A stretch of 64,000 bases of DNA from an uncultured Candidatus Actinomarina sp. (GCA_902634185.1 CACPJC010000003.1:32369-96368), one strand, 5' to 3'; shown: positions 35,051 through 56,267, counted from the stretch's first letter. The notes: generated by a model not told the origin, from the letters alone. Program-made: numbers and translations.

Positions 35051-35845
35051 TTAAGCTGAACAAATATTGATGTAATCGGTTAAATACTCTTGTTCACTTG
35101 AATCTAATTCACCTGCTGTTCTGTAGTGATTGTATGCACCACCGTAATAACGCACAAGTGCATCAACTAAATATTCTTCCCCTCCAAAAAAGTCTCGTGC
35201 ATCTTGACGATATAACGTTGTTGAATTTTTTGGACAGTTCCTAGTTAAATATGTAAATGCATGAAGTGATTCATGAAGTAAAACATCATAAGAAACTGCA
35301 GCTGAAAAAGCTCTATCCGATATCCAAATAGAAAGTTTCCATTCTGCATTTTTGGTTCCATCTGAGCTTGTTCCGCTTGGATCCCATACTCCATAAGGAC
35401 ACCTCCCAACAAGTGAAGCCCCATATTGATGACAACCATTAATAACACTTATATTGTTTGTTTCGATTATTTGTAACAGTAATGGAGGTAATTGTTTGAC
35501 TAGTTCACCCAAAGTAGTTTGATTTGTGCCTTCGAATCCTGCGTATTCTGCAAATGGACCTGTGTAAACCGTTGTGGTTGTGGTTGAAGTGGTTGTTGTT
35601 GAAGTTGTAGATGTTGTGGTTGAAGTGGTTGTTGTTGAAGGTGGAACAGTTGTTGTTGAAGGTGGAACAGTGGTTGTAGTTGAAGATGTAGTAGTCGTTG
35701 GCTCAAGAGTTGTTGTAGTAGTATCAATGACTTGAATTTCTTCTTGTTCAAGTACAATTGTCTCTTCTTCTTGATTAAAGTTTATTACAACTAAAGAAAC
35801 AATTAATAACAGAAAAATAAATGAGTTTATATATCTGTTGTTCAT
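35051..35845 (-). CDS. secreted Thr-rich (mucin-like linker) protein with C-terminal HExxH domain
   Basis: Signal peptide. About 50-aa T/S/P-rich linker. C-terminal domain containing LLHESLHAF. Confidence 0.5.
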   Translation of the reverse strand: MNNRYINSFIFLLLIVSLVVINFNQEEETIVLEQEEIQVIDTTTTTLEPTTTTSSTTTTVPPSTTTVPPSTTTTSTTTSTTSTTTTSTTTTTVYTGPFAEYAGFEGTNQTTLGELVKQLPPLLLQIIETNNISVINGCHQYGASLVGRCPYGVWDPSGTSSDGTKNAEWKLSIWISDRAFSAAVSYDVLLHESLHAFTYLTRNCPKNSTTLYRQDARDFFGGEEYLVDALVRYYGGAYNHYRTAGELDSSEQEYLTDYINICSA

Positions 35846-37287
35846 CTTCTGGCCTTTACTTTTATAAATAAACCTAGAATCAAAATTGTTAAAATGTATC
35901 CAATTAGGCCAATTGCAAAGGTTAAAGAAAATGAACCCATACTTAATAAATCTTGTTGCATGTTGGCAAATTCACTATCTGGAGGAACAATAAGAATTCT
36001 TATAAACAACCACAAACCCAATATAAAACTTAAAAGTGGAAAGATTTTAAAAACACCTTGAGAGTCGGTAAGAGATTCAAATAACTCATTTCCACCACCC
36101 GGCAGTGACTTAAACAAAACTCCTTCTAAACACATCAAATAGCTAAGGGCTGCAGCTGCCGTCAGTACCGTTGAGTCTTTAATAAGAGGTATAGATGTTA
36201 GATAGAAGAAACCAAACCCTGCAAGACTCAAAGCAATTGTTGAGTAAAATTTTGGTGAAAGTTTTGCTATATTTCTTCTTCCAGTGATGTACGCAGATGC
36301 AAAAAATCCAAATATAAATCCAATTGGCATTTCAAAATAGATGAAAGCAAGAGTAGAAATCCCCGCAAAAAATATTGCTTGAGGAGCCCATTTAATTCTT
36401 ACTTTTTGCTTAAAAACTTTACTCTCAATTAATCCCTCTGTCCCCTCGTAAAACAAAGTAACAGCAATTAACCCAACGAGTGCAGCAATAAATATTGCTA
36501 AATTTTCAAGATCTAAAGTTAGATCAGCTCCTTCCTCAACAAAGCCTATTAAAAATGCAGTTGAAAAAAGAACGAAAAGAACTTTAACTAAAGTAATAAG
36601 CTTCTTTGAGCCACGAATGTTTCTATCTTTGGCAAACCATCGAATATTATTCGTTGAAATAATTTTGTTAAACCATTCTTGTAAGAGCAACACTACATAA
36701 AACAAAAAGATGATTCCCGTTGAAACAATTACAGCGATGCTGTTTTTTTCTTGATCTGTCAGATCAACATCCTCAAATAAGGGAATAGACGTAATCAACT
36801 CATTTGTTATTTCAATATTTAAAAAATCAGTTTCCTCGATGACGGGTGGTGGAAGAGTTGTTGTAGTTGTTGAAGTGGTAGTTGTTGTTGAAGTTGTTGT
36901 TGGTGGTGGAATTATTTTTAATAATTTTTGATTTATGTATTCCATCTCAACTATTTTTTTACATTCCTCTGCAGGACAATCAGGCCCAGTAACATTCTCA
37001 AATTCAGTAATAAAAACGCGTATTGTGACCCTTACATAATCTGGATAGCAACATAGCTCAAGTTCGCCATCTGGGCTTTCAAGTTGAATTGTTTCAATAT
37101 TGTTGTCGTGTGAAATTTGGAGGACGATGTCATCATAGTCCTCAAAATTTATAGACCATTCAACTAATATCTTTTCATTTTCTAATCGTTTTATATCAAG
37201 CTTTATATTTTCGGTATCTAAAGTTGGAGTAAAAAATGAACCATTGAAAAAGAGGAGGAATAATAAAAATATTAGACTTTTTTTCAT
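35842..37287 (-). CDS. polytopic membrane protein with N-terminal exported domain and poly-Thr linker
   Basis: Signal peptide. About 130-aa domain. PPPTTTSTTTTTSTTTTTLPPP linker. About 8-10 TM helices. No recognisable family. Confidence 0.5.
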   Translation of the reverse strand: MKKSLIFLLFLLFFNGSFFTPTLDTENIKLDIKRLENEKILVEWSINFEDYDDIVLQISHDNNIETIQLESPDGELELCCYPDYVRVTIRVFITEFENVTGPDCPAEECKKIVEMEYINQKLLKIIPPPTTTSTTTTTSTTTTTLPPPVIEETDFLNIEITNELITSIPLFEDVDLTDQEKNSIAVIVSTGIIFLFYVVLLLQEWFNKIISTNNIRWFAKDRNIRGSKKLITLVKVLFVLFSTAFLIGFVEEGADLTLDLENLAIFIAALVGLIAVTLFYEGTEGLIESKVFKQKVRIKWAPQAIFFAGISTLAFIYFEMPIGFIFGFFASAYITGRRNIAKLSPKFYSTIALSLAGFGFFYLTSIPLIKDSTVLTAAAALSYLMCLEGVLFKSLPGGGNELFESLTDSQGVFKIFPLLSFILGLWLFIRILIVPPDSEFANMQQDLLSMGSFSLTFAIGLIGYILTILILGLFIKVKARR

Positions 37288-37290
37288 TGA

Positions 37291-37920
37291 CTACTTTTGG
37301 ATTTTAGTTGCCTTTTCAAAAATTTCATTTACATTTTCTACATACCATTCATCTGTATATTTAGACCAGACGGGATAACTTGGATCATAACGTAGCCATA
37401 GAAATGTGGATCCATTGAATAATTGAAAAATATCATCAGCAAGTTCATCAGCAGAATCAGCATCATAATTTTTGCAGAGAGATTTGAGAACATCATAGGG
37501 TTCGCGCTGTATCCATTTTCCCGATGCTTGAATATCTCTAACTTCAAACCAAGCAAATCTAATTGCATTACCAAGTTCAACAACTTTATTTGCGATTGTG
37601 TCCAAAAACATGGTTATAGCGGCACCAGGCTCTGGGGAGGTTTGTAAAAATGCATTCAACTCATCAGCAACATCTTTAAATCCTAATTGAAATAGTGATC
37701 CATAAACATCTAATTTATTCTCAGGAAAATGATTGTAAGCAGTTGCAACAGACACTCCAGCATGCTTTGCAATTTGTGAGACAGTGACTTTTTCATGAGA
37801 AACGAGTGGATTATTAAATAGCTCGACTGCACTATTTATAAGTTTTTTATGCGCCTCATCATATGTTTTTTGTGCACGTAATGATCTTCCATCCTGTTTT
37901 TTTAATGGTTCAATGCTCAT
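37291..37920 (-). CDS. TetR-family transcriptional regulator
   Basis: HTH VSQIAKHAGVSVATAYNHF. 209 aa. Start directly abuts the stop of the giant ORF. Confidence 0.8.
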   Translation of the reverse strand: MSIEPLKKQDGRSLRAQKTYDEAHKKLINSAVELFNNPLVSHEKVTVSQIAKHAGVSVATAYNHFPENKLDVYGSLFQLGFKDVADELNAFLQTSPEPGAAITMFLDTIANKVVELGNAIRFAWFEVRDIQASGKWIQREPYDVLKSLCKNYDADSADELADDIFQLFNGSTFLWLRYDPSYPVWSKYTDEWYVENVNEIFEKATKIQK

Positions 37921-40900
37921 TTAATTACCACTTTCTATCCTAGTAAGAATCCCTGAAACAACGAGTCTTTGCCTAGCAGAGTACCTAGGGTGACAAGTTG
38001 TCAATGTCAGCCTGTCATCACCTCGATTAAAAAGAACATAATCTCCTGTGTTAGCATCAACCACTTCTATATCATCCACAATGTAATGGTATTTATTTGA
38101 CCCATATGTTAAATAAATCTCATCTCCAATTTCGACCAAATCTAATCTACTGAAAGGGGCACCATATGTTGTCCTATGGCCTGCAATTCCAACATTTCCA
38201 CCTGAACCCGGTAGTTTTGTCCCAAGATAGTGTCCTGGACCAAATTGCAAATTAAGTTCATCAGTACCTGAAACAACATATTGATTTACGTTTATACCTG
38301 GAATTTCAAGAAGACCGAATATTTCAGGTTGAAATTCATCAATCTTTGCACTTTGGTCAATGATGGTAAAATCTTGCAAAGTTTCAAAAACAGGAATGTC
38401 ACTTTGGAATAAGCGAAGAGGATTTGAAAAAATTGTAGGAGGATCTACGTCCTTTATTTCCTCACCTAGATAGATTTGTTCAAGATAAGCTTGAGCATTG
38501 TCTTGTTGAACATTTGATAAAAACATTTGTTGTGTTGCATAAATACCAAAACCCATACCTGTAATTATCGATAAAACAGCAAATCCAAGAGCAGGTCGTT
38601 TTAATTTTTTTCTATCAAAAAATTTTCTGTTAATTTTTTTTGTGTCTTTTTTTCGAGAAAATACCTTTTTCTCCGCGATTTTTGCATCGAGCTCATTACC
38701 AGAATATATAATTTGAAAGTTATTTGAAATTAGACCCAAACGCTCTTCAAGAATTTCTTTTGTAAGTTCTGTATTTTCTTCCTCGCAAATAGATTTTATG
38801 TTTTCAATTGCGACTAGAGTATATTGAAGCTCACTATCAAGTGCTTGTATCTCTGATTGATAAGTTGTAAAACTCTTTGCATATGGAGCAAATTTATTTA
38901 TATCAATACTAATTTCTACTTTTTCTTGTATTAGTTTCTCAATTTTTGTTTTTAATTTGAAGGCATGCTTATAAATATCCTCTAGCGAAATTTCACTTTC
39001 CATTAGTTTTCTTTTTCGATAAGATGTAAAAAGTATTACACCACCAACTAAAAATACTGAACCGCTTATGACAATATAGTCTAAATTTATTCCTGTAGCT
39101 GCCAAGGCTATACTATCCTCTCGATAGATGTAGGTAACGTTGTAACTACCATCAGTGAAATATATGTCATCATCATCATCCCACTCTAGAAAGTCATTTC
39201 CAGTTTCATCAGTAAGAGGTGCTTCACATATATCATCCTCTTCTAATATCATATCCTCACAAAAGTCATCCACTAATGGATCCGTTGGGTCTGGATCCGT
39301 TGGGTCAACTATACACTCAAGAAGTTCTTGTAAGTTTGTTGGATTACAAAATTCTTCTGGAGCAGGATCCGTTGGGTTTATAGGATCAGGATCTCTTGGA
39401 TCAATTGGACCTGGATCTGGATCTGTAGGATCAGTTGTTGTAGTTATTGTAGGATCAGTTGTTGTAGTTATTGTAGGATCAGTTGTTGTAGTTGTTGGGC
39501 AATCAACTGTAAAGCTTGGACCCCAACGTTTCCAACCGCCTGAAAAAGAATTAGAAGTTGTAGAGGTTTTGTATCTCCATCTAACGTTTTGTCCGCTTGG
39601 AACATTTACAGATCCCCTTTCTGAGCTACCTGGTGGAACAGATCGATTAGAAACGAGTGTTGACCAGTTTTTTCCACCATCTAGGGAATACTCAGCTAAG
39701 AAATAAGCATTCGCATTTGAAGAGTCGGAGTTAGCCATATTGAAATGTATGAGTTTTGCACCTCCTGAACATTCCTCTCGTGTATTTGAAACAGAAGGGT
39801 TAATTATTGGAGGTCCTGGCAGTGTTGTTGTAGTTGTTGGACAATCAACTGTAAAGTCTGGACCCCAACGTTTCCAACCGCCTGAAAAAGAATTAGGAGT
39901 TGTCGAGGTTTTGTATCGCCATCTAACGTTTTGTCCGCTTGGAACATTTACAGAGGCCATTTCTGAGCTACCTGGTGCAACAGATTGATTAGAAACGAGT
40001 GTTGACCAGCTTTCCCCACCATCTAGGGAGTACTGAGCTAAGAAATAAGCATTTGCATTTGAAGAGTCTGAGTTAGCCATATGGAAGTGTGTGAGTTTTG
40101 CACCTCCAGAACAAGCATTTCGAGTATTTGAAACAGAAGGGTTAATTGTTGGAGGTCCTGGCAGTGTTGTTGTGGTCGTTGGAGACGGATCATCAATACA
40201 ATCTAAAACTTTCTTGGTACCACCTTTTGTTTTTCTACCACTTAGTTCATCTTTAATAATAAAACGAAGTTTATATGTAGATCCATTTGGGACAGATAAA
40301 AGTGTAGTTAAGTCTCGTGTTTCTCCAGCAGCAATACTAAAAGTTTGATCAACAACTTTGGCTTTGTTTATTCTAATTCTCATTCTAATTGTTATGCCAA
40401 CAGTTGACCTTGAGTTATCTACAATTAAACCAATTCTCGCAGTTCCATCATCATTACATTCCATGAAGTTTGCAATCCTAAAATCTACTCTTGGAATTTC
40501 AACTGTTGTAGTAGTAATTTCCGGCAGTGTCGTAGTAGTTGTTGTAGTTGTAGTAGTTGTAGTTGTAGTTGTAGTAGTTGTAGTAGTTGTAGTTGTAGTA
40601 GTAGTGGTTGTTGTTACAACACAGCTAGCCGTATATGAAAGAGTAGGATCTACGCCTGGGATATCTGTATCTTCAGTCACCCAAGTACTACTGTCATGAG
40701 CGCCTCCAGATTTTCTTGAACTATATCTCCATTGAATACTTTCTCCATTAGCTAATGCGGGAGCAGAATACGTCTCCGATGAAGTAGCTGGTACCTCTTC
40801 ATCATCTTTCAATTGTGTCCAGTTAGAGCCACCATCAGTTGAGTATTCCACCCTATAAAAGACTGAGACAGTCGAATCAGAACCGCTACTAAGAGTTATT

Positions 40901-43900
40901 GAAGGTGTTTGTGTCTGAGAATCAGAACATGATCCTAGTGATGTTGAAACACTAGCGCACGATATCGTAAGCTTCGATCCTATCTCTGTCCATGTTGACC
41001 CACCATCAGTTGAATACCTATGTTCACGTCCAGTACCATTTGCTATTGCAGTATTTACCGCAAATTCTTGTGTAGCGCCAGCATTTATTGACTTACCACT
41101 GTCTTCACCGGTAACACTGCCTCCAAAATATGCCCAATCCCCAACATTTCCAGTCACCGCATTGGTTGCTCTTTTTTGTACTAAAAATGTAATAGCGACA
41201 TTACTTCCGCTGTTGTCGACAGTTATTTTAATTTTACCCATTGTGCCGCCCTGGCTTGTGCCGTTATTTTTACAACCATTTGTTTCGTGAGAAACAGCCG
41301 GAGCAATAACGGGACAATCAATAGTTATTGTTGAAAGTGTTACCTCTGATTGGCTGAGTCCCTCTGATGAGTTAGCAACAGAGTATTTTATGATTACCGA
41401 GGTATCGTGACTTAGTGCTGGTACGGAAAGTGAGGAGGAGTCTGTCGCTCCAGCTCCAACGGTTGTAGCAGTTAATACTGTAAAGTTTGATCCCCCGTCA
41501 GTTGAGTAGCTGACGGTGAATGTTCCAGCAGCGGTTGAATTTGTATTTATAAGAGTAATTGGGATTGCTGCACTTCCACTCGAACAACTTGCAGCAGTTG
41601 CTGTGGCAGTAGCATTAAGTATGGGGCAATCTATCTCAATACTGCTTAGGTTGGTTGTTGAAGCAGATGAAAAGTCGGTACTTGATGAGGTCTGATAACG
41701 AATATAGACGGTAGTGTCGTTTGTAAATGATGAACCTGAGAGACTAACAGTAGAGGTTGAGTCTGCTCCAACTAAAACATGAGATCCTCCGATACCGTCT
41801 GTCCAGGTTGAGTTATCTGTAGAGTATTGAACTTTAAAATAATTACCAGAACCCTGTCCAGTATTGTCAAGGAGTACGTTTATAGGTGCTCCCCCACCTG
41901 AACATGTTCCATGCGTTGCAGAGACTGCTGGTGTTGTACAACTGACTGTGGCACTATTTAAACTAGCACCAGTGACATAATCTCCTGAGAATGATCCAGA
42001 AACCGTAGAGGTTTTATATCTCCACTGAATTGCAGTACCGTTATTGACAGTTTGCGTCACTGTATCTGATCCACCAACCGTAACCGATTTACTTGCTTCT
42101 TTTTCAACCCAGTTTGATCCACCGTCTATTGAGTACTCAATTAGGAAATACGCAGTAGCTTGTGATGAACCACTGTTTGAGATAGCTAATGTTGATGTCT
42201 TTGAAGCTCCACTACAACTAGCTGATAAACTCTGTGAACCAGAAGTTGTAATATTACATGAAACATCTGAACTTGCACTTCCAGTAGCAGTAGGAGTTCC
42301 TGTAAACGTTGCACTTGTTGTCGATTCTTCATATCTCCAGGTGATGTTTGAGCCAACCGGGACGCTATGCGTCAATGTTTCTGTGCTATCAACACCAACA
42401 GACTGATTAGCTTCCTTCACTTGCCAGGCACCGCTATCAATCTTGTACTCAACTTTTACATACGCTGTTGTTGTTGCAGAGGATGAGTTTGTAATTGCAA
42501 AACTTGATGTTGCGCTACCACTGGAACAAGTTCCAAGTGTAGCTGAAACACTTACGTCTATAACAGGACAGTCAACAGTTGCACTATTTAGATCACTACT
42601 TGTGACATAACTTCCTGAGTATGATCCTGAAGTTGTAGAGGTTTTATATCTCCATTGTATAGCTGAATTATGTGGTACAGACTGTGTAAGTGTTGCTGAG
42701 CCATTATTATTTACAGTTTGATTGGCTGCTTTCTCTGTCCAGTTAGATCCGCCATCTAAAGAGTACTCAACAAGGACATAAGCTACAGCATTTGCTGAAT
42801 CAGAGTTATTAATAGTTAATGTAGAGGTTTTTGCTCCACTAGAACAACTTCCAAGGGACTGTGATGCACTGACATCTATTATTGGACAATCAACAGTTGC
42901 ACTGTTCATATCACTACTTGTGACATAACTTCCTGAGAATGATCCTGAAGTTGTAGAAGACTTATATCTCCACTGAATAGCTGCATCGTGAGATACAGAT
43001 TGTGTCAGTGTTTCAGATGCGTTTTTTGCAACGGACTGGTTCGATGCTTTCTCTGTCCATGTTGACCCACCATCAACGGAGTATTCAACTAGGAAGTACG
43101 CTGTTGTGTTGGCGGAGTTAGAGTTTGATAAAGTTAAAGTTGAAGTTGCTGCTCCAGCTGAACAACTACCTAATGCCTGTGATGCACTTACATCTATTAC
43201 TGGACAATCAACAGTACCACTTGCAACAGTTGTGGGTGTCAGTCCTGTAAAACTAGCTGATGTATCTGAAGATGTAACTCTCCAAGTTATTGCAGAACCA
43301 TGAGATACATTTTCTGAAAATAAGGAACCCGTTCCAGTTAATATAGTGGCGCTTGCATTCTTTTCTGTATAAGTCGAACCACCATCCGTTGAGTATTCTA
43401 CTTTTACGTAAGCAGTTGAACCTGACGTATTCGTTACTGTAAGTGTTGATGTAGCAGTTCCAGAACCAGAACAACTACCTAAATCTTGAGAGCTTGAAAC
43501 TGTTACGGCTTGAGGACAATCAACAGTTGCACTATTCATATCATCAGCTGTGATATAACTTAGTCCCGTCCAGTTCCCTGATGTATCAGAGCTTTTATAT
43601 CTCCACTGGATAGCTGACCCATCAGGTACACTAACCGTCAAAGAGGTATTTGTTTGACCATCGGAAATTGATAAGTTATCTCCTTCCTGTGCATCTGTGT
43701 GAACAGTCCAGCTTGAACCTCCATCTAGTGAGTACTCAGCAGTAACATATGCTGTTGAACCAGAACTATTTTGTAGAGAAAGGGTAGAGGTATCAGAACC
43801 AGCTGAACAACCTCCTAGTGATTGTGAATCTGTCAGAGATATAGCTGTAGGACAGTCAACAGTACTACTTGTTACTTCTGTACCTGAACCAGAAAATGTA

Positions 43901-46900
43901 TTACTTGTTGAAGAAGTTAGATAGGTCCATGTAATAGTAGATCCATCAGGAACTGTTTGGGCAGCCAGTGTTGTAGAAGCACCTGCTGCAACTGATTGAT
44001 TTGTGACTACTGTATTCCAGTTTCCACTATCGATTTTGTATCGAACATAAAAATATGCTGTTGTATTTGCTGATCCAGAGTTAGATAAAGTTAAAGTTGA
44101 ATTTTGAGATCCTCCAGAACAGCTACCATCAAGTGATTGGGATACAGAGGGGTCAATATATGGGCAATCAATTGTATCGCTATTTACTATAGTGGCGTCA
44201 CCGCTAAAATAACCACTTGTAGTTGATGTCTGATAATACCATTTAGCATAAGAGCCATCCGCAATCGGTAATGTGACGGTCACGGAGCTACCTGCAGCCA
44301 CTGCTATATTGAAGTTACTATCTCCCGACGATACGGTCAAATTAGATGATGATAAACCTCCTGATCCATCAAGTTGGTACCTTATCTTTACGTAGACAGT
44401 TGAATTTGCTGATGCGGAGTTTGATAAAGTGACCGTTACTGTTGCTGAACCAGCGGAACAACTACCGACTGATTGAGCAAAAGAGAAATCTGTATATACA
44501 CAATCAACAGTTGCACTATTCATATCACTAGCTGTCACATAACTTAGTCCCGTCCAGCTCCCTGACGCGTTAGAGCTTTTGTATCTCCATTGGATAGCTG
44601 ATCCATGAGGTACGCTTACTGTTAAAGAGGTGTTCGTTTGACCATTGGTAATTGTTAAATTGTCTGCTTCCTGTGCGTCTGTGTGTACAGTCCAAGTAGA
44701 CCCGCCATCGGTTGAGTACTCAGCTGTGACATACGCTGTTGATCCAGAAGTATTTTGAAGAGAAAGTGTAGATGTAGCAGAACCAGCTGAGCAACTACCA
44801 AGTGATTGTGAATCTGTCAGAGTTACTGCAGTAACACAGTCCACCGTTAATGCCGTACCATCTGGAGAGGTATAGCTTCCAGAAGTTGGATCCGATGATG
44901 CATCAGCTCGAGCTCGCCAAGATACCTGATACCCATGTGGTTGGGCGGATAATGAACGTGTAATCGATGCACCTTGAGCTAATTCAATTCCAGTTAAATT
45001 GTCAGTCCAATCAGATATATCACTGCCGTCTAAAGTGAGTTTGTACTGAAGGTCGACAAAAATTGAACCGTTAGCAGTGTTGGTGATTGTAGCTGAAGGA
45101 ACAGCTGAACCAGCTGAGCATGAACCCATAGCATCTGTAATTGTAAATGTTGCCGTTGCGCAGTTAACTGTTGAGCTATTCATGTCACTAGCTGTGATGT
45201 AACTTAGTCCTGTCCAATCACCTGATGTATCAGAGCTCTTGTACCTCCATTGAATTGATGAGCCGTGAGAAACACTGACCGTCAGCGAGGTATTCGTCTG
45301 ACCATTAGTAATAGTTAAATTATCTGCTTCCTGTGCGTCAGTGTGAACAGTCCAACTAGAACCACCATTGGTTGAGTACTCAGCAGTAACATACGCGGTT
45401 GAACCTGAACTATTTTGTAGTGATAGTGTAGAGGTAGCAGAGCCTTCAGAACAACTACCAAGTGATTGTGAGTCAGTGAGGCTAACTGCTGTTGGATCAG
45501 GAGAACAACCGGAGGCATTAATCGTTATTGAAGAAAGAGCAGTCGTATTTGAAGTCGGTTCACGCAAATCATAAGTAGTGTTTTCTGCATACCAACTAAT
45601 TACCACTGTAGCACCATTAGATTGACCTGGAACATCTAGGGAGGTATTGCTCGATGATGACGAGACAGAAGTGCCTGATGTCAGAGATTGTGAGCTTCCA
45701 CCATTAACTGTATATGTAACAACAAAGTTAGTAGTTACGTTAGAACTTAAGTTATTTAAGGTAACATCTATTTTACGATTTGACCCATCACAACTTCCCT
45801 GAGTAGCTGTAACAGTGGGGGCGAAATCAACATTGGGTGCACCTTCGTGGCATGCAGCACCATCATTTTTATTTGCTCCAGATTGTACTGTGCCTAGACT
45901 TGAACTCCAGCTCCAACTACTTCCGTTATATTCAGCTTTTCGAACATCTCCAGTTGAATTATGCACAAAATAAGCATGTTCTCCACCAAATCCAAACGCA
46001 GCACCAACATCTGAATTGCTCCATGAATATGGTGAAGTTGGTGAGCTTAATGAGTGGTCAGTTATTTCTATTGTGAAAGAACTCCCAGATACAATTAAGT
46101 ATCCAAGCATTACTTGATCATTTACATTGTCATAAGCCACAAAATCTGCTTCGTGGTTTACACCTCCACTAGAGAATGTTGGAAAGTTTGAACCATCTCT
46201 CAACCAGGTAAAGTCTTTTGCTTTAGCTAAATTACCTGCAACAGAGTTTGTGTTTACTGTAAGAGAGGAAGTTACATCTGTATAATTTGAAGAGTTAGTG
46301 TAATCTGTACCATCTATACGAATTAAGAGTGGTGATGAGCCCTTTAAGAACCCATTACCTGAAAGTAAATAACCAGTTCCGTTGTATTCAAAATAGGATG
46401 CAGCATTATTATCAGCAGAACTAAAACTGGCTATTAACGATGGGTTGTTATCAGCAATATTATCGTTGTTAGCATCAGTTGCATCCATATAGTAAAGTGT
46501 CCTATTTTTACTCGAATCTTTCCGAATCATCCAGAGATTTCCAAGATTATCCATCATCGAGTTGTTCCACTCATTTGAATTTGATCCTGGAAGGTTTTGA
46601 TACTCGAATGTTGCTCCTGATGGTGTGGCAGGACTAGAACTCACAAGATTTCCTGAGTTACTGTCCCACCCGTATACTTCAACTTTGTCATCTGAAGAGT
46701 TGTATTTTGTTTGATAACCTAATGGATTTCCATCTGAGTTAAAACATGAGAGCTGTGAAGATGCAAAAGCAGGTTCAGGATCAACTGTCTCAATGGTCAC
46801 ATATGCAAGAGAGACAATCATTAAAAATGACATAACTAAATTGAAAGTTTTCTTATTAAAGACGAACGAAAACAGCTTTTTACACAAAAGCACAACAAAG

Positions 46901-46932
46901 TCGAAGGCGTTTAATATTTTTATATTCCCCAC
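37921..46932 (-). CDS. giant (3003-aa) cell-surface repeat protein carrying a C-terminal LAATG sorting signal fused in frame to a class E sortase domain
   Basis: Single open frame. The probable true start is the internal Met of MSFLMIVSLAYVTIETVDPEPAFA (signal peptide). It contains about 17 Ig-like ~100-aa repeats, poly-Thr and PT/DP linkers, then LAATG + hydrophobic segment + RKRK, a coiled-coil, a TM helix and a sortase domain. Confidence 0.75.
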   Translation of the reverse strand: MGNIKILNAFDFVVLLCKKLFSFVFNKKTFNLVMSFLMIVSLAYVTIETVDPEPAFASSQLSCFNSDGNPLGYQTKYNSSDDKVEVYGWDSNSGNLVSSSPATPSGATFEYQNLPGSNSNEWNNSMMDNLGNLWMIRKDSSKNRTLYYMDATDANNDNIADNNPSLIASFSSADNNAASYFEYNGTGYLLSGNGFLKGSSPLLIRIDGTDYTNSSNYTDVTSSLTVNTNSVAGNLAKAKDFTWLRDGSNFPTFSSGGVNHEADFVAYDNVNDQVMLGYLIVSGSSFTIEITDHSLSSPTSPYSWSNSDVGAAFGFGGEHAYFVHNSTGDVRKAEYNGSSWSWSSSLGTVQSGANKNDGAACHEGAPNVDFAPTVTATQGSCDGSNRKIDVTLNNLSSNVTTNFVVTYTVNGGSSQSLTSGTSVSSSSSNTSLDVPGQSNGATVVISWYAENTTYDLREPTSNTTALSSITINASGCSPDPTAVSLTDSQSLGSCSEGSATSTLSLQNSSGSTAYVTAEYSTNGGSSWTVHTDAQEADNLTITNGQTNTSLTVSVSHGSSIQWRYKSSDTSGDWTGLSYITASDMNSSTVNCATATFTITDAMGSCSAGSAVPSATITNTANGSIFVDLQYKLTLDGSDISDWTDNLTGIELAQGASITRSLSAQPHGYQVSWRARADASSDPTSGSYTSPDGTALTVDCVTAVTLTDSQSLGSCSAGSATSTLSLQNTSGSTAYVTAEYSTDGGSTWTVHTDAQEADNLTITNGQTNTSLTVSVPHGSAIQWRYKSSNASGSWTGLSYVTASDMNSATVDCVYTDFSFAQSVGSCSAGSATVTVTLSNSASANSTVYVKIRYQLDGSGGLSSSNLTVSSGDSNFNIAVAAGSSVTVTLPIADGSYAKWYYQTSTTSGYFSGDATIVNSDTIDCPYIDPSVSQSLDGSCSGGSQNSTLTLSNSGSANTTAYFYVRYKIDSGNWNTVVTNQSVAAGASTTLAAQTVPDGSTITWTYLTSSTSNTFSGSGTEVTSSTVDCPTAISLTDSQSLGGCSAGSDTSTLSLQNSSGSTAYVTAEYSLDGGSSWTVHTDAQEGDNLSISDGQTNTSLTVSVPDGSAIQWRYKSSDTSGNWTGLSYITADDMNSATVDCPQAVTVSSSQDLGSCSGSGTATSTLTVTNTSGSTAYVKVEYSTDGGSTYTEKNASATILTGTGSLFSENVSHGSAITWRVTSSDTSASFTGLTPTTVASGTVDCPVIDVSASQALGSCSAGAATSTLTLSNSNSANTTAYFLVEYSVDGGSTWTEKASNQSVAKNASETLTQSVSHDAAIQWRYKSSTTSGSFSGSYVTSSDMNSATVDCPIIDVSASQSLGSCSSGAKTSTLTINNSDSANAVAYVLVEYSLDGGSNWTEKAANQTVNNNGSATLTQSVPHNSAIQWRYKTSTTSGSYSGSYVTSSDLNSATVDCPVIDVSVSATLGTCSSGSATSSFAITNSSSATTTAYVKVEYKIDSGAWQVKEANQSVGVDSTETLTHSVPVGSNITWRYEESTTSATFTGTPTATGSASSDVSCNITTSGSQSLSASCSGASKTSTLAISNSGSSQATAYFLIEYSIDGGSNWVEKEASKSVTVGGSDTVTQTVNNGTAIQWRYKTSTVSGSFSGDYVTGASLNSATVSCTTPAVSATHGTCSGGGAPINVLLDNTGQGSGNYFKVQYSTDNSTWTDGIGGSHVLVGADSTSTVSLSGSSFTNDTTVYIRYQTSSSTDFSSASTTNLSSIEIDCPILNATATATAASCSSGSAAIPITLINTNSTAAGTFTVSYSTDGGSNFTVLTATTVGAGATDSSSLSVPALSHDTSVIIKYSVANSSEGLSQSEVTLSTITIDCPVIAPAVSHETNGCKNNGTSQGGTMGKIKITVDNSGSNVAITFLVQKRATNAVTGNVGDWAYFGGSVTGEDSGKSINAGATQEFAVNTAIANGTGREHRYSTDGGSTWTEIGSKLTISCASVSTSLGSCSDSQTQTPSITLSSGSDSTVSVFYRVEYSTDGGSNWTQLKDDEEVPATSSETYSAPALANGESIQWRYSSRKSGGAHDSSTWVTEDTDIPGVDPTLSYTASCVVTTTTTTTTTTTTTTTTTTTTTTTTTTTTTLPEITTTTVEIPRVDFRIANFMECNDDGTARIGLIVDNSRSTVGITIRMRIRINKAKVVDQTFSIAAGETRDLTTLLSVPNGSTYKLRFIIKDELSGRKTKGGTKKVLDCIDDPSPTTTTTLPGPPTINPSVSNTRNACSGGAKLTHFHMANSDSSNANAYFLAQYSLDGGESWSTLVSNQSVAPGSSEMASVNVPSGQNVRWRYKTSTTPNSFSGGWKRWGPDFTVDCPTTTTTLPGPPIINPSVSNTREECSGGAKLIHFNMANSDSSNANAYFLAEYSLDGGKNWSTLVSNRSVPPGSSERGSVNVPSGQNVRWRYKTSTTSNSFSGGWKRWGPSFTVDCPTTTTTDPTITTTTDPTITTTTDPTDPDPGPIDPRDPDPINPTDPAPEEFCNPTNLQELLECIVDPTDPDPTDPLVDDFCEDMILEEDDICEAPLTDETGNDFLEWDDDDDIYFTDGSYNVTYIYREDSIALAATGINLDYIVISGSVFLVGGVILFTSYRKRKLMESEISLEDIYKHAFKLKTKIEKLIQEKVEISIDINKFAPYAKSFTTYQSEIQALDSELQYTLVAIENIKSICEEENTELTKEILEERLGLISNNFQIIYSGNELDAKIAEKKVFSRKKDTKKINRKFFDRKKLKRPALGFAVLSIITGMGFGIYATQQMFLSNVQQDNAQAYLEQIYLGEEIKDVDPPTIFSNPLRLFQSDIPVFETLQDFTIIDQSAKIDEFQPEIFGLLEIPGINVNQYVVSGTDELNLQFGPGHYLGTKLPGSGGNVGIAGHRTTYGAPFSRLDLVEIGDEIYLTYGSNKYHYIVDDIEVVDANTGDYVLFNRGDDRLTLTTCHPRYSARQRLVVSGILTRIESGN
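37924..38593 (-). other. class E sortase catalytic domain (C-terminal 223 aa of the giant ORF)
   Basis: TM anchor ALGFAVLSIITGMGFGIYA. GHYLGTKLPG..GNVGIAGHRTTYGAPFSRLD (catalytic His). LTLTTCHP (catalytic Cys, codon 37993-37995). QRLVVSG (Arg). Order and spacing match SrtE. Confidence 0.8.
39007..39105 (-). other. cell-wall sorting signal: LAATG + 24-aa hydrophobic segment + RKRK
   Basis: Translation IALAATGINLDYIVISGSVFLVGGVILFTSYRKRKL. LAxTG is the class E sortase recognition motif. LAATG maps to 39091-39105. Confidence 0.7.
40525..40620 (-). repeat. (ACN)n tract encoding about 30 consecutive Thr
   Basis: Plus strand reads gtagtagttgtagttgtagtagttgtagtagttgtagttgtagttgtagtagtggttgt. Protein reads VVT(30)LPEITTTT. 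Confidence 0.85.
40700..45600 (-). repeat. tandem ~300-nt (~100-aa) near-identical coding repeats (Ig/FN3-like modules) in the giant gene
   Basis: Protein units SLGSCSAGSATSTL.L.NSSGSTAYV.AEYS.DGGS.WT...WRYKSS..SG...ATVDCP recur. Long stretches are nearly identical at the DNA level, e.g. 43540-43830, 44520-44820 and 45190-45480. Confidence 0.8.
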
Positions 46933-49615: not shown

Positions 49616-52180
49616 TTATTCATCACCATCAGCGATTCCATCTGTGTCAGCATCTGAGCTTGCATTTGGGTCTAAAGGAAATGCATCTAAAGAGTCTAAT
49701 ACCCCATCACCATCATCATCTGTGTCTGATGAATTATCGATACCGTCTCCATCTGTATCAACAGCAGTTAGTTTCCATCTTCTCATAAATTCATCTTCAA
49801 ACATTACTATTCCTACTTCAGGGTTCACCCAAAAATTTAGTATCTGTAAAGACCGGTGAAATGAACTTGATGCACCAATACTAACTTGTGAATGAGTAAT
49901 TTTGTATGCATCGTATGCACCGTGAGGTGTAACAACTAACTCTTGATTTACATAATTTGTAAAATTCCAAGTATCGTAATAAGTAGTGCCAAAAGTGGAT
50001 GTATTTTCATATCTTGAAGAACAATCTGATTCATTATATTCACCTGTCTTCATGTAATGGTCAATGAATAGACAAGGATTTTGAAATTCTCTTTCAATAG
50101 AGCCGTCACTTGGTGTTGAACCGGCAAATATCTTTTCCCAACCAACAGTCTTTATAAAGTAATTACCATTGTTTATATAAAATAATATTCCAAATTTATG
50201 GTTAACATCGCCTGTATTAAATGGATTCACATAATTCATGTCACAATTTTGTGTATCACACCAGTAAAAAGTTTCGTATGTAGTTCCACCATCCTCAATA
50301 TCTGAGCCTTTTTCGACATACATTGTTTTTGTTGCAGAAGTAGTTTCAGAAATTGATTCTGTAAAGCTATATGACGATGAACCACCATCAATTAATGGAA
50401 AATATGCTTTTGATTTTATTGAATAACTTCCGATGTCAACGCCATAATTTGTAGATGGCCCAAATCTGTCATATTCATGTGCATATTCTTGCATTACTCT
50501 CGAAGCATCAGATTGATCATTTACTCCAGCACTTTGTGTGCCTTGTGTTCCATCATTTTGATAGTGGAAAGGAATGCCAAGATCATTTACTTCTGGAAAT
50601 CCAGCACATGTTAAATCTGGATTTGAATAAATTCCACAAAAAGCCATTCCATACCCTACGAGAGTTGAGAAAGGTTGGTCGCCTGTCTGATTATAAGCAT
50701 GTGCATAATCGGTAATTCCATCTCCTGTTGATCCAGGATTTGAACTTTGCTCTCTTGAATGTGCTATCCCCAAAGCATGTCCTAACTCATGTGGAAAGAG
50801 CTTGTTATTATATCTGTAATCCAAGCTTGTAACTTTGAAAACATTTCTCCTGTCTTTTGTTGTATCTCTATATAAATATGAAGAACTTCCCTCTCCAGGA
50901 AGGAGTGCACCTACAATATCAGCACCTTTTTTAACTTTAGTTTTGTGGACTTCTTGATCATATTGTAAAAAGTTTAAAATATTGCTACTTACGTCTGAGT
51001 AAGTCACATTCCAAGAATGGATATCCAAAACATTCATTTCCAAGTTAGTAATCTGACTATTCGCAAAAATCTCATTTTGATTTGTCTCTAACTGACCCTG
51101 AGCAAAAGAAAGCAATTCACTGGTAGTATCGTAATCGCTTGGTGCAGATCCAATTGTGTCATTGTGGTAAACAAGTAAAAGATCTATGGAAAATTTTTCT
51201 GATATATCTGTCACGTTAACTGTAAAATTTTTGCAAGATATTCCCAAACTGTCAGTCACATTTGCAGTTGCTGAATAACTTGTCTTTTGCTCATAGTCAG
51301 CATTTGTATTTAAAGTTATTACTCCGTTTGAATCAACCGACATAAGTCTTGAATCACTTCCAGTAATTGAGTAAGACAATGTGCCTGATCCCGTTGCTGA
51401 AATGGTATCAATAGATTTTTGATTTTCATTTATTGTTATTGGAGTAGTTAAATTAGTAATTGTTGGACCATTGCTACAGCTATCCTCAGAAGAATTTCCT
51501 GATCCAGTTCCACCAGTTCCACCAGTTCCAGGTGTTATTCCTGGGATGGGTTTTTCTATAAAATCAAAACCACTATTTTTTAATTGTTTATGTTCATCGC
51601 AGTCTCTATATGTAGTCCATTCACCTGCTGCATTCCATAAAGTTCCAACTTCTCCATGCCACATCTTTCCACCATCATCACAATCAATTTTCTCACTTAC
51701 TGTTTCCGTGATAATTTCATCAACCTCTGTGATAACTTCATCGACCTCTAAGAGATTTTGTTTTATTGGTCTATTTTCAAAAAAAGTACATTCTTTGTAA
51801 GCTAAATAGTCACCGCAATCTATAAATATAGCTTTGACCTCCATCTCACAATTGTTATAAGTTGTCATAGCTTTATGTGTTGAAGGTCCAATAATGCCAT
51901 CAACTCTAATCCCAATAAATCTTTGAAAATTTTTGATTGCTAGCCTAAGACTTTTTGTCATATAAGCTTCAATTTTTCCAGTGAAAAAACCTTCTTCATT
52001 CAGAAAATCATATAAATTACTAACTTCAAGAAAATTTACGTTACCGTAATTATTTTCAACACATTCCTGAGTAGTTTCATTAAAGACTGATTCAGTTACT
52101 TCGATTTGGGTTGGAAACATTAGAGTTGTAAAAATAATCAAAAATACAAAAATAAAACAAGTAAAAATTCTCCAACCCAT
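49616..52180 (-). CDS. secreted multidomain metzincin metalloprotease (PG-binding + cadherin-like + HExxHxxGxxH + Asp-rich Ca-binding repeats)
   Basis: Signal/TM anchor. PG_binding_1-like LAIKNFQRFIGIRVDGIIGPSTHKAM. Cadherin-like module. HELGHALGIAHS. C-terminal DTDGDGIDNSSDTDDDGDGVLD...DADTDGIADGDE. Confidence 0.7.
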   Translation of the reverse strand: MGWRIFTCFIFVFLIIFTTLMFPTQIEVTESVFNETTQECVENNYGNVNFLEVSNLYDFLNEEGFFTGKIEAYMTKSLRLAIKNFQRFIGIRVDGIIGPSTHKAMTTYNNCEMEVKAIFIDCGDYLAYKECTFFENRPIKQNLLEVDEVITEVDEIITETVSEKIDCDDGGKMWHGEVGTLWNAAGEWTTYRDCDEHKQLKNSGFDFIEKPIPGITPGTGGTGGTGSGNSSEDSCSNGPTITNLTTPITINENQKSIDTISATGSGTLSYSITGSDSRLMSVDSNGVITLNTNADYEQKTSYSATANVTDSLGISCKNFTVNVTDISEKFSIDLLLVYHNDTIGSAPSDYDTTSELLSFAQGQLETNQNEIFANSQITNLEMNVLDIHSWNVTYSDVSSNILNFLQYDQEVHKTKVKKGADIVGALLPGEGSSSYLYRDTTKDRRNVFKVTSLDYRYNNKLFPHELGHALGIAHSREQSSNPGSTGDGITDYAHAYNQTGDQPFSTLVGYGMAFCGIYSNPDLTCAGFPEVNDLGIPFHYQNDGTQGTQSAGVNDQSDASRVMQEYAHEYDRFGPSTNYGVDIGSYSIKSKAYFPLIDGGSSSYSFTESISETTSATKTMYVEKGSDIEDGGTTYETFYWCDTQNCDMNYVNPFNTGDVNHKFGILFYINNGNYFIKTVGWEKIFAGSTPSDGSIEREFQNPCLFIDHYMKTGEYNESDCSSRYENTSTFGTTYYDTWNFTNYVNQELVVTPHGAYDAYKITHSQVSIGASSSFHRSLQILNFWVNPEVGIVMFEDEFMRRWKLTAVDTDGDGIDNSSDTDDDGDGVLDSLDAFPLDPNASSDADTDGIADGDE

Positions 52181-53919: not shown

Positions 53920-54897
53920 TTATAAAACGTTTTCACCCATAAAAATTGCGGAGACAGAATCGTCCGCAAAAATAGATGTTAGTGCCGTTGCAATAATAGA
54001 GGAAACGGAGAGAATGTTTACATTTCCGATTTTTTCGATATTCCCATTTTGTTTAAGTGTGTCTGTTACGACGATTTCTTCTATAGGGGTATCTTGAAGT
54101 TTCTCGACACTTTCATCAGAAAAAATTCCGTGAGTTGCTGCTACGCTCACAGACTTTGCACCTCTCTCAATTAGAGCTCTTGATGCAGCAGCAATTGTGC
54201 CTCCTGTATCAATTATGTCATCAAATAATATTGCGTGTCGATCCTCAACTTCACCGATGACAGTAAATGCCTTTACTTCGTTATGTATCTTTGGATCTCT
54301 CTTCTTGTGTACAAAACCAACATAAGCCTCCATATTTTTAGCAAAAGTTGTAGCTCTTCTCACTCCTCCAGCGTCTGGGGAAATTATTGTTATAGGCTCT
54401 TGAAATTTTTCTTTAAAGTAATTTACAAATAATGGCATAGCTGTCAAATGATCGAATGGCTGATCAACAAATCCTTGAATCTGTTGTGTGTGTAAATCAA
54501 TTGAGACTATCCTGTCTGCTCCTGCTGCAATAAATAGGTCGGCAACTAATCGAGCAGATATTGGCTCTCTAGGTAATGCTTTTTTATCCTGTCTTGAATA
54601 TGGGTAAAACGGAAGTACAGCAGTGATTCTTTTTGCAGATGCTCTTTTTAAGGCATCTACAAGTAAAAGCTGCTCCATTATTGTAAAGTTAACTTGGCCC
54701 GAATGGCTTTGCATTACAAAACAATCAGCACCTCTTACACTTTCTTGTAAACGTATATAAATTTCTCCATTTGCAAATTGAGTCTTATCTACTTCAGCAA
54801 GTTCAGTTCCTAGTTCTTTTGCAACTTTATCGGCTAATTCAGGATTTGATGAACCTGAAAATATGAGCATTTTCTTTTTACCAGCTCTCTCAATCAT
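53920..54897 (-). CDS. prs: ribose-phosphate pyrophosphokinase
   Basis: PRPP-binding DDIIDTGGT. 325 aa. Confidence 0.9.
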   Translation of the reverse strand: MIERAGKKKMLIFSGSSNPELADKVAKELGTELAEVDKTQFANGEIYIRLQESVRGADCFVMQSHSGQVNFTIMEQLLLVDALKRASAKRITAVLPFYPYSRQDKKALPREPISARLVADLFIAAGADRIVSIDLHTQQIQGFVDQPFDHLTAMPLFVNYFKEKFQEPITIISPDAGGVRRATTFAKNMEAYVGFVHKKRDPKIHNEVKAFTVIGEVEDRHAILFDDIIDTGGTIAAASRALIERGAKSVSVAATHGIFSDESVEKLQDTPIEEIVVTDTLKQNGNIEKIGNVNILSVSSIIATALTSIFADDSVSAIFMGENVL

Positions 54898-56267
54898 TTC
54901 TTTCCTTTTTTATTTTTTCGATCCATATAGCCCTCAATATTTTTCTGATCATTTCTTTCAATACCAAGAGCTCCTGGAGGAATATCTTTTGTAATTACAG
55001 ATCCAGCACCCACCATAGCTCCCTCACCAATGGTCACGGGAGCAACAAGCATTGTATCTGAACCTACAAATGCATTTTTCTTTATCTCAGTTTTATGTTT
55101 TTCTTTACCGTCATAATTAACAGTTATTGCTCCGGCTGAAAAATTTACATTTTCTTCTAATTCTGCATCTCCAACATAAGCAAGATGGGGTACTTTACTG
55201 CCTTTTCCAATTTTTGAATTTTTTGTTTCTGCAAAAGCTCCAACTTTCACATTTTCATCAAGAATAGATCCCTTTCTTAAATGAGCATAAGGACCAATTG
55301 TTGCCTTGCCTTTTATTTCTGCTTCATCGATCACTGAAAATTGAACGACAGAACCCTCGCCTATTTTTGAATCATTAATTATGGAGTTTGGTCCTATGAC
55401 ACAATCCTTTTCAATACTTGTTTTTCCCGTTAAATGACAATTAGCTAAAATTCTCGATCCGGAGGCTATCTCCACAGACTTATCTATATATGTTGAATTT
55501 GGATCTTGAAAATATACACCATTTTCCATGTGGGATTCAATTAGTTCTTTCCGAAGCGTGTTCTCAACATCATTCAGCTGACTCATGGAATTTATACCTT
55601 GTATTGAATCTTCATTTACTTGTACTATAACCCTTTCAAGATTGTTTTGAAAAGCTATATTTATTAAATCTGTAAGATAAAATTCTTTTTGATTATTTGA
55701 ACTTTCTAAACTCCCGATATTTGAATTTAGGAAACTTATATCTATGCAATATATTCCAGAATTAATTTCATTGATTTGTTTCTCAGTTTCATTTGCATCG
55801 GATTCTTCAATTATCTTTTCAAACTCTTTATTATTTTTTACAATTCTTCCATACCCAAACGGGTTTTTAACTTTTGCCGAAATTAATCCGATTGCAGCTT
55901 TATTTTCTATGACATCATTTACTAATTTATCTAGCTCGTTCTTTCTTATCAGAGGAACATCGCCTGGAATTACTACTAAGTATTGACTGTTATCACTTTC
56001 AAACTCGCTGCTCTCTAATAATGTAGAAATTGCGTGACCTGTACCAAGTTGTTCTTTTTGTACTACCGGAATAAAATTCTCAAATATGGTTGAGGATACT
56101 TTTTCTGATTGATGTCCAACAACTACATATTTGCTATCAAAATGACTAATTGCTTCTTGAGCATAATCAATCATTGGAATGCCAAGTACGTTATGAAGAA
56201 CTTTTGGAAGGGAGGACTTCATTCTTGTTCCCTGACCAGCAGCTAAAATTACACCTGAAATACTCAT
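54894..56267 (-). CDS. glmU: bifunctional UDP-GlcNAc pyrophosphorylase / GlcN-1-P acetyltransferase
   Basis: N-terminal LAAGQGTRMKSSLPKVLH. C-terminal left-handed beta-helix hexapeptide repeats. Confidence 0.9.
   Translation of the reverse strand: MSISGVILAAGQGTRMKSSLPKVLHNVLGIPMIDYAQEAISHFDSKYVVVGHQSEKVSSTIFENFIPVVQKEQLGTGHAISTLLESSEFESDNSQYLVVIPGDVPLIRKNELDKLVNDVIENKAAIGLISAKVKNPFGYGRIVKNNKEFEKIIEESDANETEKQINEINSGIYCIDISFLNSNIGSLESSNNQKEFYLTDLINIAFQNNLERVIVQVNEDSIQGINSMSQLNDVENTLRKELIESHMENGVYFQDPNSTYIDKSVEIASGSRILANCHLTGKTSIEKDCVIGPNSIINDSKIGEGSVVQFSVIDEAEIKGKATIGPYAHLRKGSILDENVKVGAFAETKNSKIGKGSKVPHLAYVGDAELEENVNFSAGAITVNYDGKEKHKTEIKKNAFVGSDTMLVAPVTIGEGAMVGAGSVITKDIPPGALGIERNDQKNIEGYMDRKNKKGKK

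Follow-up and report, generated by a model that had tools for sequence, protein, structure and literature searches.

On the minus strand of the window analysed here, a 64,000-nucleotide (nt) stretch of DNA from an uncultured Candidatus Actinomarina sp. (GCA_902634185.1 CACPJC010000003.1:32369-96368), a single gene at 37921..46932 encodes both a giant surface protein with a sorting signal and a sortase. We consider it likely, with a probability of roughly 0.7, that a giant wall-anchored protein and its dedicated class-E-like sortase are made here as one self-processing precursor. By the textbook, sortase anchoring takes two components: the substrates, each ending in a sorting signal, are made apart from the membrane enzyme that acts on them. 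In this case, enzyme and substrate are one polypeptide and the signal is internal.

A sorting signal and a sortase in one open frame

The frame (window G+C, 35%) comprises 3003 codons, starts with GTG and contains no internal stop, which bears out an earlier claim, made from the DNA alone (the sequence-only reading), that it specifies one continuous polypeptide. From the N-terminus, its parts are an export signal, a repeat passenger, the pentapeptide LAATG, a hydrophobic span, RKRK, a cytoplasmic domain, a second transmembrane (TM) helix, a linker, and the sortase. All coordinates given for these parts refer to the minus strand. The motifs by which the sequence-only reading had recognised the two halves were each located in the translation: LAATG at amino acids (aa) 2610-2614, RKRKL at aa 2639, MESEIS at aa 2644 (window 39003), ALGFAV at aa 2781, GHYLG at aa 2900, AGHRTT at aa 2917, TLTTCHP at aa 2976, and QRLVV at aa 2988.

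The pentapeptide LAATG (39091..39105), read directly from the translation, would be cleaved between Thr2613 and Gly2614. It is followed after 2 residues by a 22-aa hydrophobic span, TM helix 1 (aa 2617-2638; 39019..39084), which has a Kyte-Doolittle peak of 2.09 at aa 2617-2635. The basic tail RKRK (aa 2639-2642; 39007..39018), defined by conservation and by the codons around it, marks the fusion junction. This is the layout of a sorting signal, recognised by motif, hydropathy and homology only, and it does not stand at the extreme C-terminus of the precursor, since 361 residues come after RKRK. Across 38 homologues, the A and T of the motif are invariant and the G is at least 90% conserved. 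In the tail, R2639 is invariant and K2640 nearly so.

Hydrophobic spans appear in three regions only of the Kyte-Doolittle profile: the N-terminal signal (peaks at aa 6-24 and 32-50), aa 2617-2635, and aa 2781-2799. The third is TM helix 2, ALGFAVLSIITGMGFGIYA (38536..38592; hydropathy peak 1.78), the putative signal-anchor of the sortase. Basic residues flank the segment between the two helices, and because RKRK follows the first and KINRKFFDRKKLKRP precedes the second, we place this segment in the cytoplasm. The out-TM-in-TM-out topology proposed by the sequence-only reading fits this pattern of hydropathy and charge, and it gains stronger support from the free-standing sortases of split relatives, which have the same layout.

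The cytoplasmic domain (aa 2643-2780, 138 aa; 38593..39006) is rich in Lys and Glu and ends strongly basic before TM helix 2. Over the 142 aa between the helices, we counted 23 Lys and 18 Glu. The domain had been described as a Lys/Glu-rich coiled coil. The composition is as described, but a plain coiled coil does not agree with the AlphaFold model of the domain, which alternates helices with two strands (predicted local distance difference test score [pLDDT] of 74). The model has no recognisable structural relative. When aa 2600-3003 were searched against 1.84 billion representatives, the domain was confined to this family, with about ten representatives; a general census of fusions among sortases was not the aim of this search.

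Beyond TM helix 2, an extracellular linker of about 75 aa (aa 2800-2874; 38311..38535), delimited from alignments, carries the conserved patterns QQ..AQ..L..IY and D.PVFE. Its length is predicted to let the sortase reach a motif only 2 residues away from the membrane. The split form has a linker about as long, with the Pfam domain beginning at aa 431 and TM helix 2 at about aa 338-358 (read from the sequence), so this length is not a special adaptation to the fusion.

The catalytic domain is class-E-like

The sortase domain occupies aa 2875-3003 (37924..38310). It matches PF04203 (Sortase) over aa 2875-2994 with E=1.6e-29 and 102.6 bits, against a cut-off of 26.6, and TIGR01076 with 85.7 bits, above the threshold of 39.35. 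His2919 (AGHRTT), Cys2980 (TLTTCHP) and Arg2989 (QRLVV) are invariant in the 38 homologues and align with the triads of solved sortases, so that the catalytic residues are not misplaced. Among the class models of NCBIfam, class E (NF033747) ranks first with 110.1 bits, followed by SrtD (91.2) and class C (86.8); a match to TIGR03784 is weak and below cut-off (63.8 bits). The domain can thus be called class-E-like by best match and motifs, with a score that lies under the curated class E cut-off of 160 bits. The sequence-only reading had called it a class E sortase outright; the sortase domain and its motifs stand, and the NCBIfam cut-off for the class is not reached.

Further features point to the same class. 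The spacing of nine residues from Cys to Arg equals that of C320 and R329 in SrtE1 of Streptomyces coelicolor (PMC5148588). Tyr2902, in GPGHY, is invariant and corresponds to the Tyr of H228-Y229 in SrtE1, a correspondence that comes from the shared G-x-G-H-Y in alignments to 5uus and 5go5 and not from structural superposition. Tyr229, which follows His228 in the beta3/beta4 loop, is proposed to read the Ala of LAxTG, the class E sorting signal (PMC5148588). The sequence-only reading had named LAxTG as the class E motif, in agreement with that work, and all 57 fused metagenome clusters described below have [LM]AxTG in the same chain as the sortase. Solved structures nearest in sequence include those entitled SrtE1 (5cuw) and Thermobifida fusca Sortase E (9iok and mutants), and NCBI names the homologues 'class E sortase'. 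The AlphaFold model of aa 2590-3003, which is of low confidence (pLDDT 58), is compatible with a sortase fold in general: Foldseek matched it to sortase structures with E values of about 1e-6 and TMt of 0.5-0.67.

The fused form is widespread in Actinomarinales

The sequence-only reading had called for a search for other genomes in which such a motif continues into a sortase, and they proved numerous. We searched the C-terminal 419 aa against 5.8 billion proteins, and dozens of independent metagenome proteins (from ENA, JGI, Tara and NCBI) span the whole query at 42-97% identity. Sorting signal and sortase occur together in 57 of the 120 representatives of 90%-identity clusters that were listed, at 41-98% identity. 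The motif in the 57 clusters is LAATG (32), LAETG (11), LANTG (6), MADTG (5) or LADTG (3). A scan of one genome per GTDB species found 32 Candidatus Actinomarina/Actinomarinales loci of the fused type. All 31 that reach the junction, from single-cell genomes and metagenome-assembled genomes (MAGs) of several projects, run from [LM]AxTG through a TM helix, a basic tail, the cytoplasmic domain and a second TM helix into the sortase without a stop.

Even species that are only 41-55% identical in this region retain the motif's A, T and G along with the hydrophobic span and basic tail. Complete open reading frames (ORFs) are present in 12 of these genomes; they encode 1763-2892 aa and start with a conserved signal peptide. 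A complete metagenome example (P0242) has 1471 aa, so that complete fused genes vary between 1471 and 3003 aa with the length of the passenger. The window protein itself, under three alternative starts, has no exact match in a collection of 15 billion proteins.

Two of the loci contain a much shorter fused ORF of 664-837 aa (L013:5401-11263 and L018:405-2918, both plus strand), with another long ORF or a stop ahead of it. Either the passenger is truly interrupted in these genomes, or its repeats collapsed in assembly. The first of these belongs to the genome AA_MB45 (CALSSQ010000001.1). There, about 6 kb upstream of the fused gene, a 385-aa ORF (L013:2261-3415, plus strand) ends in IAATG, a TM helix and RRRRG, and a split giant and sortase (L035) lie 19 kb away on the same 1.02-Mb contig.

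The junction is not a sequencing artefact

The codons at the junction in the window are TAT CGA AAA AGA AAA CTA ATG GAA. Loss of 1 nt from either A-run would produce TAATG, a stop overlapping the start codon at the Met of MESEIS, so it was reasonable to worry that the fusion is an artefact of sequencing or assembly. In that case, two ordinary genes would have been joined by a 1-nt homopolymer error in CGAAAAAGAAAACTAATG, the upstream one otherwise ending ...N-TAA over the ATG of the other. Two further observations lend this idea some support. Split relatives do have overlapping stops and starts (TAGTG, TGATG), and two database proteins of 360 aa (P0013 and P0026) begin exactly at the junction Met.

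Comparison among species speaks against it. The frame is kept in every one of the 31 genomes that reach the junction and in the 57 metagenome clusters, none of which places a stop between the basic tail and the segment that begins with MESEIS in the window. Nor is the out-of-frame TAA conserved: over the 31 species, the Leu codon before the window Met is CTA, CTT, CTC, TTA or TTG, and close relatives have the last four. Only 12 of the 31 species, including the window, have Met at the junction, and 19 lack it. In-frame insertions there differ between lineages, for example RKKKLLAEPGSITIENVYK and RKRKLLSEIRTVDSKDLDSVYK. In addition, the split sortases carry an extra N-terminal TM helix that is absent from the fused form.

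The database proteins of 360 aa are gene-calling artefacts. On the contig of P0026 (L081), LAATG...RKKKLMQSEIS reads in one frame with the junction intact. Two frameshifts in acidic low-complexity DNA (L081:1800-2700, plus strand), about 60 aa upstream of the junction, cut the gene call short, and the call therefore begins at the Met. Such truncated calls disguise the fusion as a stand-alone sortase in protein databases.

Selection acts on both sides of the junction. Comparing the window with L005-L007, relatives at 82-88% identity, we obtained ratios of nonsynonymous to synonymous substitution rates (dN/dS) of 0.05-0.15 in each of four segments, namely the sorting signal, the cytoplasmic domain, TM helix 2 with the linker, and the sortase; for the sorting-signal segment, the range is 0.05-0.11. 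The junction codons in 31 species and the intact P0026 contig rule out a homopolymer indel, and we give that explanation practically no weight. We are close to certain that this is a genuine fusion and that it is subject to selection.

Split loci in sister lineages

In sister lineages, two separate genes stand at the same chromosomal position, with thrC upstream and a TetR-family gene, rho, prfA, prmC, sua5 and glyA downstream. In 15 species (L033-L047), a giant of >3100 aa ends with xAxTG or xPxTG (YAITG, FAPTG, IPFTG, LPVTG), a TM helix, RRGYRY and a stop, and this stop overlaps the start (TAGTG, TGATG) of a sortase of about 545 aa. The sortase begins with a TM helix of its own and continues with RRNK, a RecA_C domain, the shared cytoplasmic domain, TM helix 2 and the catalytic domain. 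In a Tara lineage (L082-L085), thrC is followed by a giant that ends ...GNDFIEWDDYDEEIYLTDGSYVVQYFYTEDEVNIASTG-TM-RRRKD-stop, with the motif IASTG, then after 20 nt by a 391-aa sortase (first TM helix, cytoplasmic domain, second TM helix, sortase) and a TetR-like gene.

The RecA_C domain of the first group (PF21096; aa 83-137, E=2.7e-16, and also TIGR02012, in the sortase at L035:9452-11110, plus strand, and likewise throughout L033-L047) sits between the first TM helix and the cytoplasmic domain. This is an odd place for it, and the fused form of the window lacks it.

By blastp, aa 673-2639 of the window protein, about 2000 aa, match a split giant up to its very last residue, and aa 2647-3000 match aa 184-550 of a split sortase. 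The sorting-signal helix of the substrate thus holds the position of the first TM helix of the free-standing enzyme. Aligned in this way, the fused form appears to be the split form minus a stop, a spacer and the first helix of the sortase. The closest split form, L082, differs from the fused one only in the stop codon, the 20-nt spacer and the first TM helix, and a deletion of roughly 110-130 nt would suffice to convert it. A split ancestor thus most likely gave rise to the fusion, a direction for which our sole argument is that split pairs are general in outgroups.

Because the signal helix replaces the first TM helix of the sortase, a cut between T and G would yield a fragment built like the free-standing enzyme. 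We regard this match of predicted fragment and known layout as the strongest argument for the mechanism proposed below.

A second fusion in Coriobacteriia

A small fusion of similar design occurs in Coriobacteriia, in three sequences only: L059:9239-10366 and L064:8117-9142 (both plus strand, both from MAGs) and P0121 (JGI). The second of these is P0122 (NCBI MBI5230851.1, named 'class E sortase'). These proteins of 340-375 aa have a signal peptide, a Pro/Glu/Ser-rich stretch of about 110 aa, LPFTG, a TM helix, an 18-aa basic loop, another TM helix, and a sortase. The order of parts is that of the window protein, from signal peptide and passenger through an LPxTG-type motif, TM helix, basic loop and TM helix to the sortase. 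They differ in the passenger, which is short and of low complexity, in the loop, which contains no domain, and in the motif.

Their relatives (L053, L067, L069) are split: the sortase, of about 200 aa, is a separate protein, and a small gene for an LPxTG protein lies immediately upstream of its gene. The Coriobacteriia fusion arose independently of the one in Actinomarinales. Adjacent pairs of a dedicated substrate and its sortase seem prone to fuse, and the product seems to be tolerated.

Processing of the precursor

How might such a precursor work? In our model, the N-terminal signal peptide would direct the passenger of about 2550 aa through Sec, and the sorting-signal helix (aa 2617-2638) with RKRK would stop the transfer, retaining the 138-aa domain in the cytoplasm. 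The helix at aa 2781-2799 would restart export and place the linker and the sortase domain outside, beside LAATG. Cys2980, supplied either by the same polypeptide or by a precursor next to it, would attack Thr2613-Gly2614 and form a thioacyl intermediate with the passenger. This would be resolved by the amine of a peptidoglycan precursor, which would fix the passenger to the wall. The remnant of 390 aa (Gly2614 to the end) would have a short outside N-terminus, a TM helix, the cytoplasmic domain, a second TM helix and the sortase, and it could go on as an ordinary membrane sortase, sharing its layout with the free-standing enzymes of the sister lineages. A dedicated pair fits the surroundings of the gene, because 712 kb of Actinomarinales sequence around these loci, the whole window included, yielded no other classical sorting signal in any genome that has the fused form only.

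A narrower version of this model, possible in our view but doubtful, would make the protein an obligate self-anchoring module. Its sortase would act in cis, cutting the chain to which it belongs in one turnover only and handing the passenger to peptidoglycan. The remnant, with its conserved cytoplasmic domain, would persist as the working sortase of the cell or as a marker of the place of anchoring. Such a module would be a monoderm counterpart of the autotransporter.

Several points weigh against the model. The order of export, the cleavage, the anchoring and the choice between cis and trans are steps that we infer from the observed continuity and conservation of the frame, its domain content, catalytic residues and topology signals, and the homology to split loci. 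The hidden Markov models (HMMs) for anchors, Pfam Gram_pos_anchor and TIGR01167, have no match at E<=0.01 (NCBIfam: aa 1-2643), and the catalytic domain falls short of the class E cut-off. An AlphaFold model of aa 2590-3003 (414 aa, 38 homologues) has a mean pLDDT of 58, and less than 40 in the motif region. We looked in it for docking of LAATG into the active site of the same chain and rejected it as unusable at that confidence. In AA_MB45, a fused locus, a split locus and the extra IAATG protein occur together, which may mean that the sortase is not wholly dedicated. An additional sortase may be initiated internally in the 12 species that have a junction Met, including the window. Finally, no description of the cell-wall chemistry of Actinomarinales is available (PMC7771536).

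With these points in mind, we weighed other accounts of a genuine fusion. One is that LAxTG is no longer processed, so that the giant stays tethered to the membrane by its two-helix hairpin while the sortase serves other substrates or is merely carried along. This would fit the missing anchor HMM matches and the indirect case for cleavage; the IAATG-ending protein of one related genome could be a client in trans, and to our knowledge a sorting signal that is internal rather than C-terminal is unprecedented. Against it stand the A, T and G, the span and the tail, kept at 41-55% identity, the dN/dS of 0.05-0.11 for the signal segment and the invariant catalytic triad; moreover, no other client was detected nearby in the fused-only genomes over the 712 kb. 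We judge this account unlikely. Slightly less probable still is that the sortase cuts LAxTG and releases the passenger, either through hydrolysis or because something other than peptidoglycan, for instance a protein lysine or a lipid, serves as the nucleophile. Sortases do hydrolyse their substrates when a nucleophile is absent, and lysines are the acceptors of class C enzymes. For the walls of these ultra-small cells, a structure has likewise not been described (PMC7771536). Against release stand the best class match, to class E, the housekeeping wall-anchoring class of Actinobacteria, and the locus, which contains neither a pilin-like partner nor a second sortase. The window also has peptidoglycan-related genes: glmU at 54894..56267 (identified by eye from the translation) and a gene for a PG_binding_1 protein.

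The sortase might also be made mainly from an internal start, the ATG of MESEIS, with the long product as a minor by-product. An ATG does stand right after the basic tail in the window and in 11 other species, and gene callers sometimes choose it, as in P0013 and P0026. Yet 19 species are without this Met, and some have extra in-frame residues at this point. A scan of the junction found no excess of promoter-like sites over shuffled sequence and no terminator-like site on the coding strand, and a product starting at MESEIS would be short of a first TM helix, a part present in all free-standing relatives. This explanation strikes us as improbable, more so than failure of processing or release of the passenger. 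A wall-anchored giant processed by its own sortase is the reading that we retain.

The passenger and its export signal

The N-terminal export signal (aa 1-57; 46762..46932) has a long n-region and the hydrophobic core MSFLMIVSLAYVTIETV. It reads ...KKTFNLVMSFLMIVSLAYVTIETVDPEPAFA|SS, and the A-x-A rule predicts cleavage at AFA|SS. Twelve orthologous ORFs of full length share the conserved pattern ...VTIETxDPEPAxA|S at their start.

The passenger proper (aa 58-2609; 39106..46761) was delimited from the translation, repeat motifs and Cys spacing. It consists of a variable N-terminal region and about 20 repeats of 105-115 aa, marked by a Cys pair, an Asp-box-like SxDGGxxW and I/VxWRY, together with Thr/Pro linkers and an acidic, Cys-containing C-terminal stalk. 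Pfam and NCBIfam assign it to no family; the Pfam matches (Reelin_subrepeat-B, CHB_HEX_C, BNR) are weak and at the level of single repeats.

One tract of the passenger comprises 29 consecutive Thr codons (aa 2107-2135; window 40528-40614). This tract and the shorter Thr/Pro linkers are probably glycosylated spacers. On the opposite strand, the Thr tracts yield spurious poly-Val ORFs, such as 40358..40699 (+).

Neighbouring genes

The stop codon of the fusion gene (TAA, 37921..37923) stands directly before the ATG of a gene for a TetR-family regulator (37291..37920; TetR_N, PF00440). Next come genes for a polytopic membrane protein of 481 aa with a Thr-rich linker (35842..37287) and for a Thr-rich protein of 264 aa (35051..35845) that looks secreted from its sequence, neither of which has a Pfam match. 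All lie on the minus strand. The spacing after the sortase stop is nil or negative, so the three genes at 35051-37920 look co-transcribed with it. A TetR-sized gene also follows the sortase in L013, L081 and L082, with TetR_N tested in the window and, where the match is faint, in L081; a gene of about 480 aa comes next in L013 and L081.

Elsewhere in the window, the PG_binding_1 protein mentioned above (854 aa; 49616-52180, minus strand) also has a reprolysin-like metallopeptidase region, a cadherin-like repeat and an acidic, Asp-rich C-terminus. Its hydrophobic N-terminus suggests that it is probably secreted.

Discussion

In the full-text literature, the Actinomarinales genome paper and papers on C-terminal sorting (subscription-only papers lay outside this scope), our searches turned up neither a natural fusion of a sortase with its substrate nor any account of this giant protein. 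The only one-chain fusions that the literature matches contained are engineered self-cleaving sortase tags. The sequence-only reading had suggested a new architecture. That suggestion holds as far as published descriptions go, but the architecture is not unique to the window: it is the norm in one clade of Actinomarinales and has a second origin in Coriobacteriia. What is new is the architecture; the chemistry of the sortase is presumably ordinary.

The nearest relatives of the system help to place it. Pairs recognised by TIGR03784 (class GN sortase in NCBIfam), which from TIGRFAMs descriptions we take to be a marine proteobacterial sortase with a single adjacent target, also set a sortase gene beside one large substrate, apparently 1:1. 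They differ in that the two proteins are separate, the sortase is of another class, and the hosts are Gram-negative. Closer at hand are the split Actinomarinales pairs, in which the passenger, sorting signal, cytoplasmic domain, TM helix 2 and sortase are homologous to those of the fusion and the flanking genes are shared. These pairs make two polypeptides, the signal is truly C-terminal, and the motif is more varied (IASTG as well as the four of L033-L047).

Among studied enzymes, SrtE1 and SrtE2 of Streptomyces coelicolor, which act with chaplins, offer the best comparison (5CUW; PMC5148588), with the same triad spacing, the same Tyr in GHY and an LAxTG substrate. SrtE1 also has the same layout of N-terminal cytoplasmic extension, TM helix, linker and catalytic domain, and needs the extension ahead of its TM helix for function (PMC5148588). 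It differs in being a separate gene product with several substrates, one TM helix and a linker of about 30 aa, whereas the window protein has its substrate covalently upstream, two TM helices in the enzyme part and a linker of about 75 aa.

Processing within one chain is chemically plausible, since engineered sortase-LPXTG fusion tags (BISOP) are described as self-cleaving (PMC2901362). Like the window protein, these tags combine enzyme and recognition motif in one polypeptide; unlike it, they are artificial and soluble. The natural fusion may supply an optimised, LAxTG-specific version of them. In BISOP tags, the sortase reportedly stands on the N-terminal side of the motif, and their product is set free instead of being anchored to a wall.

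The findings bear on annotation as well. Proteins of 1,500-3,000 aa are labelled only 'class E sortase', a name that hides a giant surface protein. For work on the two-helix sortase and its cytoplasmic domain, the locus provides a natural series, from split with RecA_C through split to fused, and the fusion poses the question of cis versus trans action and of single versus multiple turnover. It has become fixed in a whole clade of a very abundant group of marine actinobacteria, and fusion of this kind arose at least twice. If self-anchoring in cis proved true, ultra-small, streamlined cells would have in the stoichiometric fusion of enzyme and substrate a strategy that frees them from relying on diffusion-limited encounters between few molecules.

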